From contig NC_135667.1 of assembly GCF_964188315.1 (NCBI RefSeq), positions 26,350,001-26,414,000 of the forward strand: DNA of 64,000 bases, read 5' to 3'. Origin of the DNA: Podarcis muralis (taxonomy: Eukaryota). Of this stretch, positions 39,405 to 47,517 are shown in pieces (position 1 is the stretch's first letter; each line of letters opens with the position of its first letter). The notes beneath the pieces are model-generated. The model had not been told where the DNA came from and did not search any database. It was given only the letters and a program-made list of their open reading frames with translations. The translations under genes and the position numbers were made by a program.

Positions 39405-39422
39405 ATGAGAGCACTCTGGTGA
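39405..39422 (+). promoter_or_regulatory. Candidate upstream ORF (MRALW*) directly after the splice acceptor
   Basis: TTTTTCTCTTCAG|ATG AGA GCA CTC TGG TGA, then 10 nt to the OR ATG. Confidence 0.55.
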
Positions 39423-39432
39423 TACCATAAGA

Positions 39433-40359
39433 ATGAATGCAACTTCCACCAGCTATTTCACGTTCCTTGGATTTCCCAGCCATTTGGAGGTGCAGATTCC
39501 CATGCTTCTTCTACTTTCGGCTGTCTACGTGGTCACTGTAACTGGGAACTCTTTCATCATTGCCATCACTTGTGCAGACACAAGCCTTCATTCCCCGATG
39601 TATTTTTTTCTGAGAGTGCTATCGCTCCTGGAGATTTGCTACACCACTGTCACCCTCCCCAAGATGCTGCATGACCTTGTTTCAAGAGACAAGTCCATCT
39701 CATTCAGTGGCTGTGCTCTCCAGATGTATTTTCTTTTATTCCTAGGAACAGTAGAGTGCTTCCTCTTGGCTGTGATGTCTTACGACCGGTACCTTGCAAT
39801 ATGCCTCCCCTTGCACTATATGGTTTTGATGTCCAAAGGTGTTTGTGTACGCCTAACTTTCGCTTCATGGCTGTGTGGCATTCTTCTTCCGCTGGTGAAT
39901 ACAAGCTGGGCATTCAGCTTGCCATACTGTGGCTCTAACGAGATCAACCATTTCTTCTGTGACTTCCCACCAGTTTTGAAGCTAGCCTGTGCTGATACAT
40001 CTCTGAATGAAGCAGTGATGCTAGTGAGCAGTTTGATCATCACTCTGATACCTTTCGTCTTCATACTCATATCCTATGCCTGCATCCTTGGCACCATATT
40101 AAGGGTGCCTTCAGCTACAGGTAGGCAGAAGTTGTTCTCCACCTGTTCTTCACACCTCATCATGGTGACACTTTTCTACGGCACAGCCAGCTTTATGTAC
40201 TTGCAGCCCAAATCCAGTTATTCTTTAGAACGAGATAAATTCCTCTCCCTTTTTTACACTGTTATAACACCCATGCTAAACCCCATCATTTATACCTTGA
40301 GGAACACAGAGGTGAAAAAGGCAGTGAAGAGAATGACAAAGAGGAAAATATTGTTCTGA
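39433..40359 (+). CDS. Olfactory receptor, OR10-like, 308 aa, intact
   Basis: LHSPMYFFL, MSYDRYLAIC, HFFCD, STCSSH and NPIIYTLRN motifs; N-terminal NAT sequon. Confidence 0.97.
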   Translation: MNATSTSYFTFLGFPSHLEVQIPMLLLLSAVYVVTVTGNSFIIAITCADTSLHSPMYFFLRVLSLLEICYTTVTLPKMLHDLVSRDKSISFSGCALQMYFLLFLGTVECFLLAVMSYDRYLAICLPLHYMVLMSKGVCVRLTFASWLCGILLPLVNTSWAFSLPYCGSNEINHFFCDFPPVLKLACADTSLNEAVMLVSSLIITLIPFVFILISYACILGTILRVPSATGRQKLFSTCSSHLIMVTLFYGTASFMYLQPKSSYSLERDKFLSLFYTVITPMLNPIIYTLRNTEVKKAVKRMTKRKILF

Positions 40360-40570: not shown

Positions 40571-41226
40571 TGAAATCATACCAGACCCTAGGGAAAGGGG
40601 GGGGGGTACACACAGCTACTTTGTATTCAGTGAGCTTAAGCATGGGTGGCAGCACCCTAGATTGTGACTGTGAGCACAAGGGTACACCCAAAGAAAGCAA
40701 AGCCTTCCTAATAAAATACGGTAATGAGAAACTTCAAGGAACAAAGCTCTACTATTTGTGTTGGCTAAGAGCAATGGATACTGGATTTTATAATGATTGT
40801 ATTTTTCTTGAACTTATTACCCATCCTTCACCCAAAGGTCTCAGGAGAGAAAGAGAGATTTTTTACTATGGTCTGTCTTACACACCTAAAACGTTGACTG
40901 GCTTTAAATTAACCTCAAAGTAAAAATAATTCTGCATTCCCCCCCCCCCTCAACTCTGTCACTGACAGAAAACTTGATTCTGTGTATGAATATATCGAGC
41001 TGCCTTACACTAGGTCAGGTGATTTGTCCATCTCGTCTAGTGTACTCTAATACAGGAGTAGCTAATGTGGAATCCTCTTAATGAAGTTTGACTAAAATTC
41101 CCATCATCCTGGACCACTAGCATCATGAGCTGAGGTTGATGAAGCAAAGGGGGTTGGTTACCCCTGGTCTTATCTGACTAGCAGTGGGTTTGTGAGTTTT
41201 CAGGAAGAGACCCTTTCTATCATCTG

Positions 41227-41790
41227 TGTAGGAATGAAAAATCACAGGAGACGAGAGAGGCAGGTGCAACATGAGGCGTCTGATCAGGGCGGACCCTGGG
41301 AGCCTCTTTTATTGAATATTACAAACATTGCCACAGGTGTGCTTGTCGCTGATTGGTTGATACATACATACACAAAGAAACTTGTTGCTGATTGGTTAAC
41401 ATAAGCATAAGGCGGGAATTACATGTGAGAAATGGGGGTTACGTATGATCATTTATTATCGGTGGATTAAAGGCTGGGAATCGAAGCTAGAACTAGACAG
41501 GCATGAAGCCTCCTAATTAAATTGTAATGATGGATCATGGCATGAAACAATATAACAATCAAGTTCTGTAGATGTGGTCAGCTAGGCATGAAGAGCGGGT
41601 CATGTTGTTTTCCATGAGCTTAGGATGACTGAACAAGGAAAAGAATGTCCTGGTGTTTAGAACAGATCTGTACAGTGTGTGCAAAAGCAGGGAAAAGATT
41701 ATAAGCAAGACTTCCCAGAATGCAAGAGAAAAGGGGTGCAAGGCTTCCCCAAAATGCAGCAGGTATGGGCAGAAGGAAAACTTCCCTTTA
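41227..41790 (-). mobile_element. ERV 3' LTR
   Basis: No mismatch to the 5' LTR found by eye; on the minus strand GC box (41411), CCAAT (41391, 41352), AATAAA (41308); ends TACA. Confidence 0.95.
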
Positions 41791-41809
41791 TCTCCCCCTT
41801 TCTTTTCTT
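41791..41809 (-). promoter_or_regulatory. Polypurine tract
   Basis: AAGAAAAGAAAGGGGGAGA on the minus strand, abutting the 3' LTR. Confidence 0.92.
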
Positions 41810-41975
41810 GTTTGCGAGGCATTCTGGGTAAATAAGGCAAAAATATTTCAGGATTAGTGGTGTGCCAGCAAATGCCCAAAATAAGTTTGCCAGGGTCGAT
41901 GGGACAGAAATATTTCGGGATACGTGGTTTGCCAGCGCATGCCCACAATAAGCCCGTCCACATCTCACCTTAGGT

Positions 41976-42949
41976 TTACTGTTGGTGTTGCCATTTCGCA
42001 AAGTAGGCAGCAAGGAGTTTATTAGGTGGTTGAGGGGGAGAGAGAAGCCGGGAGAAAAGACTTATGAGGCCAGGAACGCATTGGAGGAAGCAACATAACA
42101 AAATTAAGATGCATATAATGACAAGGGCATATTGAAAGAGATTACGAAGCCAAGTAAGATTAGGTAGCCATGCAGTAAGCCACTGGGTGAAGGAACCCCA
42201 GAGGCCAGAAAGTCCAACATCTTGTGTAATGTGGTGTGTAAGATTTTGCAAATGAGAAATCTGGCTTTGAATAGCTTTAGAATTGTCAGTAATATTAAAA
42301 CAACACATGTTGTCCACTTGTTCACTGCCGTAGTGATGAAACATGAACAAATAATCGATAGCACGATTTTGTAAAAGTCCATTATATAGTCCACTCTGTT
42401 CTTTATTCAAAAGGTGAAGAACTTGTGAAGTAAAATTCAGGGCTTTTCCTGCAGAATAAGCTAAAGAATTAATGTTCATACGATTCCGTACAGCCAATCC
42501 AGGGACTTCTAAGAGACTCCTAAGAGAGAAACAGCTAAAAAGATATATTCAGACCTACTGAGAAAAGAAACAAAAGCATCACAATCGTTAGTCAATTTTT
42601 CAGAGCGGCGATATCGAGGGCGGGATAAATGATGCTTCTTGGGTAAAATGATGGACAAACGGCTTAAACAGCAAGGTGTTCCATGGCTGATGTTTGCTGG
42701 AATGTAATTAAATGTATAGCCAGGACACGACCAGAACCAGCCTGCAGGCAGCTCAGTGTATTTATATACATAGGAAATATTTACATAATCAGAGCAGTTA
42801 AAGGTATCTCTGCCCATTTTCACACAATTGGTTTTTGTACAATTTACCATACGTGCACAAGTAACATTAAATGAAGCCACGTATGGGGTCAGCAAATCAA
42901 TGGTCAAAGGTGGGCGTAAAGATGAATAAAACCAAGTATCATTTTGCAA
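41976..42949 (-). pseudogene. env: Retroviral env remnant (C-terminal SU, furin site RYRR, TM with ISD, CX6CC region and membrane anchor)
   Basis: LPAGWFWSCPGYTFNYIP..GTPCCLSRL; RPRYRR|S (42605-42616); LLQNRAIDYL; GSEQVDNMCCFNITD; hydrophobic anchor. Split by an 11 bp tandem duplication (42504-42525). Confidence 0.92.
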
Positions 42950-42955
42950 ATCAGG

Positions 42956-42973
42956 ATCACGTCGGGGTCACCA
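42956..42973 (-). promoter_or_regulatory. Primer binding site complementary to tRNA-Trp
   Basis: TGGTGACCCCGACGTGAT, 18/18 complement to the 3' end of vertebrate tRNA-Trp, 2 nt from the 5' LTR. Confidence 0.93.
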
Positions 42974-42975
42974 GA

Positions 42976-43539
42976 TGTAGGAATGAAAAATCACAGGAGA
43001 CGAGAGAGGCAGGTGCAACATGAGGCGTCTGATCAGGGCGGACCCTGGGAGCCTCTTTTATTGAATATTACAAACATTGCCACAGGTGTGCTTGTCGCTG
43101 ATTGGTTGATACATACATACACAAAGAAACTTGTTGCTGATTGGTTAACATAAGCATAAGGCGGGAATTACATGTGAGAAATGGGGGTTACGTATGATCA
43201 TTTATTATCGGTGGATTAAAGGCTGGGAATCGAAGCTAGAACTAGACAGGCATGAAGCCTCCTAATTAAATTGTAATGATGGATCATGGCATGAAACAAT
43301 ATAACAATCAAGTTCTGTAGATGTGGTCAGCTAGGCATGAAGAGCGGGTCATGTTGTTTTCCATGAGCTTAGGATGACTGAACAAGGAAAAGAATGTCCT
43401 GGTGTTTAGAACAGATCTGTACAGTGTGTGCAAAAGCAGGGAAAAGATTATAAGCAAGACTTCCCAGAATGCAAGAGAAAAGGGGTGCAAGGCTTCCCCA
43501 AAATGCAGCAGGTATGGGCAGAAGGAAAACTTCCCTTTA
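42976..43539 (-). mobile_element. ERV 5' LTR
   Basis: Direct repeat of 41227-41790, followed by the PBS on the minus strand. Confidence 0.95.
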
Positions 43540-43759
43540 CATCTGCTCCATGATCCTTCTGACTGGAGAAGTGAGGGATTGAACCAGGGACTGTTTTCAT
43601 GCAACTTACTTACTTACTTGCTTACTTACTTAGCATATTGTTATATAACACCCACAATCTCTACAGAAGTGTGATATTCCAGGGAACTCCCTGTAATCTC
43701 GCACTGTTGTAGAGATTGGGGGTGACGTGTAACACAGGATCTGTGTTTCCTTTTGGAAA

Positions 43760-45015
43760 TGCTGCCTTGAGAACGGCAAGGAGTGATGCCCAGTGGATGT
43801 GTCAATAACTATTGGCTGAAGTTGTGTCAACTCGTTCAACTTGCTGCTGACAGCAGCAACATTTGCAAAATGTATGAAGGCACGAAGACAGCATTAGAAG
43901 AGCTGGACGTCCACAAGAGGATCACGTCCTTCCACGAAAATATGTCTGGCACATCCAGTGTGATGGTTCATCCTCGGATGCTTTCCCTATAAAGAGTGGT
44001 GAAACAGAGCTGTGTTCTTGTCCCAACTCTCTTTGGCATAGTCTTCTCCTTGTTGTTCTCATATGCTTTCAGCTTCACTGAAGACAGTCTGTATTTCCAT
44101 TCCATCCCATTTAAGGAGCGATGGGGTCTGTTCAACCTGGCATGTCTCTGCACCAAGACCGGCAAACTCTAAAGAAGCTCTACAGAGACTCATTGACCAT
44201 TTTGCCCAAACCTGCATGGAATTTGTCCTCTCTGACAAAGAACAACAACCTAGGTAAGGACATCGTCACCAGTACTCCAGGCAGATGGTAGACGATTTTG
44301 TCTACTTGCCTTCCAGAATAACCACCAACTTTCCCATTGATGCTGTGTATTGGCAAGTGTATTGGCAATACAGCAATACCTCGCCTCTCCAAAAGGGTAT
44401 GGGAGAATATGATGCTAACGCCCAATACAAAGGTGAAATACAAAGGCCTGCATGTTGAGCACACTGCATTATGGAAGTGAATCATAGGCAACTTCAACCA
44501 GCAGTGGCACCTCAATATACATGGTGTCAGGAAGATTTTGGGCATCACATGGCAGGAGAGAGTCTTAAACAAAGATATGCTCTCCCCACCCAGCATTCCC
44601 AGCATGTTTGCACTTCTGTCTCAGTGACATTTGCACTATTGGTCTTGTCCACAGAATGGAAGATGGCATGATCCCTAAGGACATGCTCTACAGGGAGCTT
44701 GCTTCAGATACGAGACCTGTTGGAAGACCAATTGTGCATTACAAAGATGTCTGCAAAGATGACATGAATGCTGGCAGCACTAACCCTGCCATGTGGGAAT
44801 CCTTTGCAGATGGTCACTGTGCCTGGAAACAGTCAGGTCGTGGATCCACAGAAGTGACCAAAGGAGGAATGAAGGCTGGGAGGGGCGCAGAAAGAAAAAG
44901 TGGCATGGTGCACTTGCAGCAGCAAAACCAGACGCCTTAATTTGTCCCATCTGCAATAGAATATGTCTCCCTCATATTGGTCAATGATCTCTACAGTCAC
45001 AGTATGCACTGTAAC
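43760..45015 (+). mobile_element. Degenerate RTE-clade LINE
   Basis: Frameshifted RT/C-terminal motifs: FHENMSG..., K(Q)SCVLVPTLFGIVFSLL, RMEDGMIPKDMLYRELASDTRPVGRP, ICPICNRICLPHIG. Confidence 0.8.
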
Positions 45016-45461: not shown

Positions 45462-46095
45462 TGTTACCGTAGTCAAAGTTCAGTCCTGAGTCACTAGCCT
45501 GGAAATAGTTCACAAGGTGCGAGGCGAGGTCCGAAGCAGGGAGCCGGGCGGGGACAGGAACACTCGAAGATCAGGAGCAGGAGGCTGGGCGGGGAACAGG
45601 AACGCTGGAAGGTCAGAAGCAGGAAGCCGGGCGGGGAACAGGAACACTGGAAGAACAGGACTGGATGCTGGCCGAAACAGCTCTTCAATGATGACGTTGC
45701 TCCCGCAACCTGGGACTGGGCTGACTGGCCTTTATCTTCTCTGAGGCCAGGGGCGGTCCCGGCCCCCAGGAGCCCCGCCTCTCCTGGCCTTAAGGCGAGC
45801 ACTCCTTCTGGGAGAAACCAGTTCCCTTCGCCTCTCTGCCCTAAGCCTCTGCAGTTCAGGAGAGGCTGAAGGGTTACTGGGCCCGGGGGGAGACTCACCT
45901 GTAGGCACTGAGTCCTCAACCACCTCTGGAGCCAGAATGGATTCACCTGGTGCCTGCTCCTGAGGATCCGGCACAGGTGCAGGCTCCTCAGAATCAAGGC
46001 CCTGCCCCAGTTCAGCCGGCCCTGGAGGCGGGGACTCCTGTGCCGGCTGGGATTCCTCCGGTTCACTCTCAGAATCGGAATCCCAGGCCATCACA
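45462..46095 (-). mobile_element. Gypsy-like solo LTR (634 bp)
   Basis: Minus strand TGTG...TAACA termini; GATAAAGG TATA-like element; three ~41 bp internal repeats with GGGCGG (45546-45655); no clean TSD. Confidence 0.7.
45732..46091 (-). CDS. LTR-embedded ORF, 119 aa, acidic/Pro-rich with a basic C-terminus (function unknown)
   Basis: MAWDSDSESEPEES...PELQRLRAERRRELVSPRRSARLKARR...; ATG at LTR position 5; no internal stops. Confidence 0.4.
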   Translation of the reverse strand: MAWDSDSESEPEESQPAQESPPPGPAELGQGLDSEEPAPVPDPQEQAPGESILAPEVVEDSVPTGESPPGPSNPSASPELQRLRAERRRELVSPRRSARLKARRGGAPGGRDRPWPQRR

Positions 46096-47517
46096 TTCAC
46101 CCTCTCTACCATACCTTTGTTTAATGTTTCTTGTTTGGAGGTTAACTTTTTCTTCCTGTCTAGCAGGCGCTGCTACAGTCTATGGCTGGTTGCTGTTGAA
46201 GGACAGGAATAAATTTTCCTGCATTGGCAGGTTTTGTCTTCCCCGTAGCAATTTGTCGCAACTTTGGCAGTTATGGCCTTGGGTGGAATCCTTTAGTCTT
46301 TTCTTCCCTATATCGGGGGGGGGGGGCGTGAAGTAGTGACTCACCCCCCTGCATCAGTGATTCCAGGGTCCCCTCTTAAAGGGGTTATATATATGGGTGT
46401 CACCGGCCATACACTGAAAGGTCATCAGTGAACTACCCTGCATGTGGGGATATGGGCTGGGCTGCCTGCTACACTTATGTCTCGCAGAATACCCCCATAT
46501 CCCATTTTCCCTGATGTGCCCCAGTTTCCCCCAGCTGGGGGGCTGTGAGGGATACATGCCCAAGGCCTAAGCCAAGGTCTTCCTACATTTGGAAATTTAA
46601 TAAAGTTGTGGCCTAACTTCAATTCCATATAAAGTTTACAGAGTCATTATTACTTCCTTATGATCGCTGGGGGCTGGGGCTGTTGCCACCTGGTCACACA
46701 ATGATGTCCATTCAATAACTGGCATAGTTTGCTCCCTTTTATTTTCATCCCATTGTCTCCAATGAGAAGGAGACTTCCTTTAAAATCCTCCACTAAATAT
46801 CAGGAAAGGTGCTTTCATTTTCATCTTTGCAGCAAGAGTCCAGAAGGATATTGGATAAGGTAAACAGGCTCCACCCTTTCCCTCATACTTGGACTGTAAC
46901 CTAAGAAAGTCAACATTTTCAGAAGAGTTTGCTGCTAATGTTTTGTTTCACCCCACACTAATCATTGTAGAATGTCAAGCTCGCTAATCGTATTTGGTGA
47001 AATGCTCCCCACCCCCTTCGCTACTCACAAATAGTATGAATAACTTCAAGATACCCTTTTCCCCTCAACCCTACTTTGATGATCAGAAATGGAATTTTTG
47101 CAGGACCTCAAACACAATACTTTCTAAAGAAGTTATTTTACTATGAGCCATGGTTTGGTGCATAATGGCGTGTTATCGAGTGATGTGTACAGGTGCACAT
47201 CTTGCTTTATGTTTGAGAATCATTACGTTAGGGCACGCATCCCAAATATTGTTGTGCTGTCATTGTTCTTTCACAAGATATTGAAGATCCAGAATTCCTC
47301 AGATTTTGTATCTGAATGTAAAGTGTGCATGTGCGTTCATCTTTCAGTCAACCCTTAGGCTGGTTTGCTTAATGTGTGCCAGTTACTGTGGGTTTCAATA
47401 CTGAAGGAAGTGCTTGCAGGTTTCAGCCAAGGGAGCTTCGTGTATTTTTTAATGGAAAGACAAAACATTTATTTATTTAGACTGAAATCCTATTTTTAAA
47501 AAATATATGGGAATAAA

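Follow-up and report, generated by a model that had tools for sequence, protein, structure and literature searches.

A deleted provirus in Podarcis muralis and its relatives: a class II reptile retrovirus family with an alpha-type envelope

Alpharetroviral pol is known only from birds, and alpha-like envelope genes are ubiquitous in reptiles, with 14 Podarcis loci given in Table J of Harding et al. 2026 (PMC13568524), where the pols linked to the reptile envs are gamma-type or ERV-L. Xu et al. 2018 (PMC6001957) report beta-related endogenous retroviruses (ERVs) not only from pythons but also from other squamates and from turtles, and the primer-binding site (PBS) and env have been described as unreliable markers (Jern et al. 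2005, PMC1224870). Here we describe a provirus in a 64,000-nucleotide stretch of the Podarcis muralis genome (NC_135667.1, positions 26,350,001 to 26,414,000; hereafter the window) and the family to which it belongs. A previous sequence-only reading had proposed either a recently active squamate lineage related to alpharetroviruses or a class II backbone carrying an env of avian sarcoma-leukosis virus (ASLV) type. It is the second of these that the pol-bearing relatives bear out, with their beta-like gag, dUTPase and reptile-clade pol.

The window provirus occupies 2.3 kb of the minus strand, with 1185 bp of internal sequence between two long terminal repeats (LTRs) that are identical at 564 of 564 positions (Table 1). 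It is most probably a deleted provirus of a multi-copy lacertid class II family, and was likely inserted very recently by an integrase (IN) of the family acting in trans. Compared with the longer relative L050, the leader, gag, pro, pol and the 5′ part of env are missing (~5.3 kb; the loss of gag and pol had already been recognised), and the PBS is followed directly by the last third of the surface (SU) region, then the furin site and the transmembrane (TM) region. The env remnant has no signal peptide, its frame break sits inside the fusion peptide, and both the fusion-peptide cysteine and the first cysteine of the CX6CC motif are changed; the copy is a dead, non-coding fragment. Contigs of run X1, possibly the sample from which the assembly was made, read across the two junctions unique to this copy, PBS to env and LTR to flank, and an assembly artefact is thereby ruled out for both. 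Relatives were examined in 39 ten-kb stretches fetched around the best matches, 40 of 99 candidates having been scored. In the longer copies gag is beta-like, pro encodes a dUTPase-protease, pol is of the reptile clade and env is of the ASLV/Mab4 type. The family therefore belongs to the class II ERVs of reptiles and carries an alpha-type env; it is not an alpharetrovirus. Env type and pol clade are each already known in reptiles; our literature search found no description of the two combined.

Pfam matches along L050 comprise Gag_p10, Gag_p24, two nucleocapsid zinc knuckles, a dUTPase (E 1e-10) N-terminal to the protease RVP, RVT_1, RNase_H and rve, with an env frame of 520 codons; pro occupies a frame separate from gag in the family. 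The L050 IN scores 226 bits against 7usf and 150 against the Rous sarcoma virus (RSV) IN, and its Gag 165 against 8c9m and 28 against 5a9e; 7usf is from mouse mammary tumour virus (MMTV), 8c9m from HERV-K and 5a9e from RSV. The reverse transcriptase (RT) is 94% identical to Podarcis lilfordi records. In pol trees of 32 rows (100/99, starred) and of 38 rows (100/95, starred) the family falls in a snake-lizard-turtle class II clade, together with Pols of Thamnophis, Naja and Natator. Once avian intermediates are included, an avian class II clade takes in both ASLV and EAV-HP (99/99, starred). The family is not inside the mammalian beta clade either, a union of reptile and mammalian beta rows being rejected by the approximately unbiased (AU) test (p=0.008, 19-row tree). 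The labels of reference rows other than L110 and L101 are provisional. Several points weigh against too firm a reading of these placements: all trees used LG+G4 and no mixture model, the deep order of the reptile, avian and mammalian class II groups reaches only 90/85 (not starred), the AU tests cover unions of the reptile clade with ASLV/EAV-HP, with alpha and with mammalian beta, and PyERV, the python ERV, is in no tree. A second class II group in the same genome (L119, L120, L121, L128, L222 and L223) also belongs to the reptile clade; its PBS is TGGTGCCCCGTGTGA, pro and pol are joined by a canonical -1 site, and its env, which has a long branch, falls among the non-gamma envs in the TM tree.

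The proteins closest to the family env are from Podarcis lilfordi (88%), Mauremys (62% and 53%) and Mabuya (Mab4, 39%). In a TM tree of 34 rows (5 dropped for want of an anchor) the lizard env joins two Mauremys (turtle) envs (99/95, starred), with Mab4, Elgaria, Crotalus and rabbit envs nearby in a 12-row group (91/92, not starred), and this side of the tree is split from gamma, delta and D-type envs (100/99, starred). The family TM thus goes with Mab4 and the reptile AREs, apart from gamma and from ASLV, and is neither beta-type nor D-type. The open env of L050 has the features of the avian gamma-type TM defined by Henzy and Johnson 2013 (PMC3758190), namely an internal fusion peptide flanked by cysteines and a CX6CC motif; in the window copy these are degenerate. 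The best PDB match of the window TM is the ASLV TM (E 9e-9). Both TM strings quoted in the sequence-only reading are present, albeit in two different frames, and the ASLV strings set beside them are found in record L105; the frameshift, the two changed cysteines and the atypical nature of the perfect PBS (see below) had been overlooked. The reptile alpha-like envs (Mabuya Env-Mab3/Mab4 and relatives of CHIRalphaEnv) share with the family the Cys-flanked internal fusion peptide, CX6CC and a glycan site in heptad repeat 1 (HR1). They differ in that their linked pols are gamma or ERV-L (PMC13568524), whereas the family has a class II pol and an env with a long Rec/Rem-like leader. As these envs are ubiquitous in reptiles (PMC13568524), the view that alpha-type envs are avian only is out of date. 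As to whether the family had been catalogued, its env part has been, at genus level (PMC13568524), and the combination with class II was not found described; no match to the family sequence was present in those supplements of the same paper that were searched.

The long leader is common to the lizard env and three Mauremys envs and gives a weak HERV-K_REC match (E 7e-4, below the cut-off). It is likely that an ancestor with a beta-type core acquired the SU and TM of an alpha-type env while retaining a Rec/Rem-like leader of its own, since the turtle envs carry the same leader and fall in the same TM clade. Rabbit (P0126, 47%) and naked mole-rat (P0133, 40%) envs also lie near the lizard env in the TM tree, which agrees with the alpha-like envs that PMC13568524 describes from mammals.

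No single known system matches the family throughout. The betaretroviruses (MMTV, Mason-Pfizer monkey virus (MPMV) and HERV-K HML-2) share its Gag_p10, two zinc knuckles, dUTPase ahead of the protease and Rec-like leader, and provide its closest PDB matches for IN and Gag; they differ in having a Lys primer where the family has Trp, and the family has an alpha-type env and no second -1 site. No G-patch was found by Pfam in the family. ASLV and EAV-HP share the tRNA-Trp PBS, the 6-bp target-site duplication (TSD; for ASLV) and the TM architecture, but differ in pol clade, dUTPase, pro frame and matrix type, and have TG at U3 and a -1 shift before pol in place of TA and +1. PyERV resembles the family in joining a beta-like gag-pro-pol to a non-beta env, which is however of murine gamma-type (PMC3758190), the family env being of alpha-type. 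A dUTPase ahead of the protease is reported in PMC2238898, and none in PMC1224870. Judged by eye, the PyERV Pol printed in the supplement of the latter paper has many motifs in common with the lizard Pol. The reptile intermediate group of Jern et al. (PMC1224870) is -1/-1, in contrast to the +1 pro/pol of the family. The G GGA AAC gag-pro site of the family is also that of MPMV (PMC12789967).

The ends of the provirus follow a family rule. Of 18 two-LTR copies with both ends located (window included, one tandem pair excluded), 14 are flanked by an exact 6-bp TSD; these include a pair duplicated from a single insertion and one copy that starts with CA. In a fifteenth copy the 6-bp TSD contains a mismatch, another copy has 5 bp, and the remaining two lack a TSD. 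In the two-LTR copies the rule is that the LTR start TAAAGGG immediately follows the 6-bp duplication. TA-type solo LTRs behave likewise, since among the first 30 of 152 matches an exact 6-bp TSD is present in 11 of the 12 with a located U5 end (in 5 further ones the U5 end was not located). Taken alone, the window copy would equally allow a TSD of 4 bp followed by an LTR beginning with TG, a reading ruled out by the two tallies, and we conclude from these that the TSD is 6 bp and the LTR begins with TA. The CATCTG repeats reported earlier are thus as described, as are the PBS and the end of the polypurine tract (PPT), but a 6-bp TSD is also betaretroviral and therefore no alpha hallmark.

A genome pattern search returned 152 TA starts and 34 TG starts, most of the TG ones being duplicates that lie on contig C20, with sister subfamilies that have other U3 starts outside the tally; the TA-start subfamily is the most numerous. 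The window subfamily therefore ends in TA...CA and departs from the TG...CA termini of orthoretroviruses, which the related subfamilies keep. Because the PPT and its spacing are alike in TG-type and TA-type copies, the TA is a substitution at the second LTR base. Such copies lie in exact 6-bp TSDs, and so the IN evidently accepts a U3 end reading TA; in the IN core, no difference between TA and TG copies was evident beyond a few subfamily-linked residues. The terminal CA is highly conserved, and mutating it lowers coordinated integration (PMC2857682). A TA end found within exact 6-bp TSDs would offer a natural test of how strictly IN recognises the end. Our literature search, with Repbase, Dfam and the +1 junction outside its scope, found no description of TA...CA ERV ends or of the family.

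The family has been active recently, as the sequence-only reading had supposed. Of 16 LTR pairs (one mis-paired row excluded) 5 are identical and 10 are within 2 substitutions, and the zero differences in the window copy bound its divergence at 0.53%, hence an age under ~1-3 million years assuming a neutral rate of 1-3e-9 per site per year. In run X13 a contig of 747 nt matches the right flank up to exactly 43540, where it departs from the window sequence as an empty site would. The insertion is likely to be very young and is probably unfixed; weighing against the latter, the empty site is one contig seen from the right flank only. In run X2 no record was present at either junction among the matches listed. 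Only 3 of the 39 fetched relatives have pol. Most of the fetched copies (L031-L069) are of two recurrent pol-less internal deletion types, several with identical LTRs, which seem to be non-autonomous subfamilies that spread recently, likely with RT and IN from pol-bearing copies. Contig C20 (30.4 Mb) carries 54 of the 62 RT matches listed, many of them segmental duplicates; given the ZW system of lacertids, it is possibly the W chromosome acting as an ERV refuge. Among the indexed runs no RNA run was recorded as containing the locus; in ~12% of one RNA run, 75 reads match the family rather than the window locus, and a metagenome scan gave two loci, both unrelated to the family.

Next to the youth of the copy stands the manner of its deletion. 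The first 15 nt of the PBS on the tRNA side are found at the 3′ end of 4 host tRNA-Trp genes, and reverse transcription was likely primed by host tRNA-Trp. Yet the perfect PBS is atypical of the window subfamily: of 63 family PBSs 11 are perfect and 52 imperfect against tRNA-Trp, most of the latter ending after 16 nt or carrying a 1-2 nt insertion. Nine of the perfect ones are from a sister subfamily, where a normal leader follows the PBS. The other two, in the window and in L072, are the only perfect ones behind the window LTR type, and here the PBS runs into env and into non-viral DNA, respectively. The tally of PBSs and TSDs that had been suggested for the family thus gave a consistent TSD but not a consistent perfect PBS. 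A search for a variant tRNA fitting the commonest imperfect PBS was negative among the 17 of 21 matches examined, all of them listed family PBSs; control matches were equally many.

Plus-strand synthesis copies 18 nt of the tRNA. As most family PBSs pair over 16 nt or less, the tRNA-copied plus-strand end would be mismatched, and in the window copy it likely annealed inside env rather than at the PBS. A transfer of this kind would account for the perfect PBS and the deletion in one step, and we consider it reasonably probable that the copy arose by such an aberrant plus-strand transfer. The alternative is a deletion at a chance microhomology. In six relatives env does not supply the last PBS bases without extra changes; on the other hand, two considerations weigh against mis-transfer, namely that a deletion at 2-3 nt of microhomology, followed by small changes, would produce the same junction, and that the evidence consists of two cases. 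HIV (human immunodeficiency virus) proviruses with tRNA-copied sequence at the deletion junction have been described, and the delayed second-strand transfer there resembles the one proposed here (PMC12657518). Other candidate aberrant products are present among the relatives. L127:4290-4925 (the same as L072 and L188) consists of a TG-type LTR, a perfect 18-nt PBS and then non-viral DNA, lacks a clean 6-bp TSD and looks like an integrated plus-strand strong-stop product; L185 is an LTR with a cut PBS; and L041:7157-9735, with two LTRs inverted around an env remnant, is likely an aberrant reverse-transcription product.

The pol-bearing relatives are also unusual in how pol is joined to pro. In 11 of 11 copies read, the gag-pro junction (-1) is at G GGA AAC, where an ordinary -1 shift likely yields Gag-Pro. 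In every family copy read, pol is in the +1 frame relative to pro. The AUG at which RT begins is invariant and lies two bases ahead of the pro stop (AUG-2nt-stop), overlapping it, so that the family lacks the -1/-1 layout of betaretroviruses. MMTV-like L101, ASLV and a third lizard family (L119-L121) are all -1 at pro/pol. When the genome was searched with a pattern allowing 0-4 free bases, which leaves out copies that lost the pro stop, 63 of 63 matches shared one spacing. RT is under purifying selection, with dN/dS of 0.02-0.26 (45 pairs from 10 copies, dS up to 0.76) and ~0.05 at dS 0.5-0.7, and constraint on the protease tail is confined to the pro frame; Pol therefore worked while the junction was +1. 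Two copies have the pol frame closed six codons ahead of the AUG, so any shift is confined to a few codons. Loss of the pro stop is limited to copies in which pol is deleted (8 of 24 of these). The AUG-2nt-stop motif recurs in +1 with other flanking codons and another stop in L224:6990-8500 (minus strand; RT 56-60% identical), and the same motif is present in L221 and L225. These three make up a third, degraded class II lineage of the genome, in which L224 groups with a turtle Pol on a 108-column piece (96/91, starred).

Since pol lies +1, it is beyond the reach of a single second -1 shift, and the second -1 frameshift usual in such viruses is probably not how Pol is made. For genes that share the gag start, PMC12789967 names splicing, readthrough and -1 frameshifting as the routes, and a conserved +1 pro/pol junction under purifying selection goes beyond the frameshift cases in that paper. 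We regard the chances as about even that Pol is translated from its own AUG, by stop-restart or from a spliced mRNA. The overlap of AUG and stop has parallels in the calicivirus AUG-2nt-stop and in ORF2 of non-LTR retrotransposons, and foamy viruses, which are class III, make RT apart from Gag from a spliced pol; the UGGGA motif of the stop-restart systems was not found upstream of the lizard junction. A number of observations weigh against this account of the junction. No UGGGA reinitiation motif occurs within 200 nt upstream of the junction, no strong splice acceptor was singled out near it, and its synonymous sites (2 of 11 variable against ~40% elsewhere) are not clearly more conserved; none of the three thus reveals a recoding signal. 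Segmental duplication on contig C20 accounts for many of the 63 junctions, so that independent lineages number far below 63. The third residue fits AUG-2nt-stop in 4 of 12 reptile-clade Pol records and in 8 of 48 outside, and -1/-1 is given for the chicken/reptile intermediate beta-like group (Jern et al. 2005, PMC1224870). A search for a slippery heptamer at the junction found none, and RNA structure past it was not consistent across 4 copies.

The chief competitor, to which we give somewhat less than an even chance, is a +1 frameshift at or just before the pro stop that yields Gag-Pro-Pol, the AUG being a by-product of a conserved Asn codon. The shifty stop of antizyme would be the model for such a shift. 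It would retain the usual packaging of Pol through Gag (PMC12789967), the protease ends exactly where RT starts, and the pro stop is kept in all pol-bearing copies seen. However, the stop and the preceding codon differ between the two lineages while the AUG and its spacing do not, and a variant with a changed Asn still has the AUG. The three closest database relatives start Met-x-(K/R/D) at the RT start, although gene callers favour Met. Any other route to Pol, an inherited lesion included, is unlikely. The lesion itself, with which these copies would at no time have produced Pol and would owe their mobility to a different class II family, seems improbable: another such family with open pol frames is present in the genome, most young copies lack pol (36 of 39 fetched), neither slippery heptamer nor reinitiation motif was found, and Jern et al. 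2005 (PMC1224870) found +1 at 27% of the pro/pol boundaries of degraded beta ERVs, but the low RT dN/dS extends across lineages that share the junction, no second spacing occurs in the 63 matches, the geometry recurs with different sequence in the distant L224, and the pol frame ahead of the Met is also the one read in the Podarcis lilfordi record P0002. Tentatively, then, the family may represent a reptile class II branch with an AUG-started, Gag-independent Pol, an alpha-type env and a tRNA-Trp primer outside birds, and a TA end that integrates with normal fidelity. If so, an orthoretrovirus would have dropped the second -1 frameshift and would make Pol independently of Gag by stop-restart.

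It is very improbable that the family is a true non-avian alpharetrovirus, or a direct sister, that inherited the Trp PBS, the 6-bp TSD and the env jointly with ASLV. The 18-nt PBS is indeed identical, within the same layout of CA, 2 nt and PBS, and is the PBS in 9 of 9 IMG/VR matches, among them ASLV-type genomes (one, L110, has an IN almost identical to the RSV IN in PDB). The TM is of ASLV type, RT alone is equidistant (213-215 bits) from ASLV and from L101, and in the sparser 19-row tree a union of reptile and alpha was not rejected (p=0.23), although one of query and alpha was (p=4e-5). Denser sampling, however, nests ASLV and EAV-HP in the avian clade and rejects their union with the reptile clade (AU p=6e-6, with avian intermediates), which leaves the proposed relationship to alpharetroviruses without support from pol. 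A dUTPase, Gag_p10 and a separate pro frame are present in the family, whereas ASLV records carry the protease inside Gag, and one -1 shift and the lack of a dUTPase characterise alpharetroviruses; a direct link of its TM to that of ASLV is rejected (AU p=2e-40); and the PBS is labile, because the second reptile-clade class II family uses a different one. None of the outcomes that the sequence-only reading had named as counting against it (a gamma/epsilon-type RT, consistent 4-bp TSDs, a TM grouping with ordinary gamma-type envs) was observed. The ASLV package of class II core, tRNA-Trp primer and alpha-type env would thus have been assembled a second time, in a reptile lineage not ancestral to alpharetroviruses, and PBS and env are therefore unfit for calling alpharetroviruses outside birds.

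That the window copy is a co-opted env (a receptor blocker or syncytin-like) or a regulator of the adjoining olfactory receptor (OR) gene is hardly credible, for although Mab4-like and bat alpha-type envs include kept open genes (PMC13568524) and the copy lies 0.86 kb behind an open OR gene, its env lacks a signal peptide, is frameshifted and has lost the fusion-peptide and first CX6CC cysteines, and the insertion is young and probably unfixed.

Table 1. Features of the window provirus and its surroundings (positions are those of the window).
Feature	Position	Strand	Remarks
Provirus	41227-43539	-	
TSD, left copy, CATCTG	41221..41226	.	6 bp, as is the family rule
3′ LTR, 564 bp	41227..41790	-	TA...CA ends; same sequence as 5′ LTR
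PPT and 2 nt preceding the LTR	41791..41809	-	PPT ends GGGGGAGA at 41791; same in 38/39 fetched relatives
3′ untranslated region	41838..41952	-	holds a 48-nt imperfect direct repeat (40/48 identical)
env remnant, TM part	41976..42518	-	91% amino acid identity to open env of L050; HR1 with N-x-T site, stretch like an immunosuppressive domain (ISD), membrane helix, short tail
Degenerate CX6CC and ISD-like region of TM remnant	42276-42374	-	
env remnant, C-terminal SU, furin site and TM start	42509..42955	-	frame differs from rest of env
Furin site RYRR	42605-42616	-	
PBS TGGTGACCCCGACGTGAT, 18 nt	42956..42973 (read 42973-42956)	-	tRNA-Trp type; 2 nt past 5′ LTR
5′ LTR, 564 bp	42976..43539	-	TA start instead of TG; two CCAAT boxes and two AATAAA (roles putative)
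TSD, right copy, CATCTG	43540..43545	.	
OR cluster	220-62190		
Six near-identical OR frames	220, 6172, 11882, 16768, 21570, 28195	+	
OR frame	39409-40359	+	Pfam 7tm_4; the only OR frame checked by Pfam
Several OR frames	34360, 48035, 52924, 58887, 61240	-	
LINE-like (long interspersed nuclear element) fragments and a stretch with 42-bp repeats	25554-26717	-	
As above	44180-44940, 45497-46336		

The 48-nt direct repeat is placed between the env stop and the PPT, a position that recalls the direct-repeat export elements of ASLV; any such function is putative. The provirus lies inside the OR cluster, and two frames near 44.2-44.9 kb gave no Pfam match, in a region with LINE-like fragments (Table 1).

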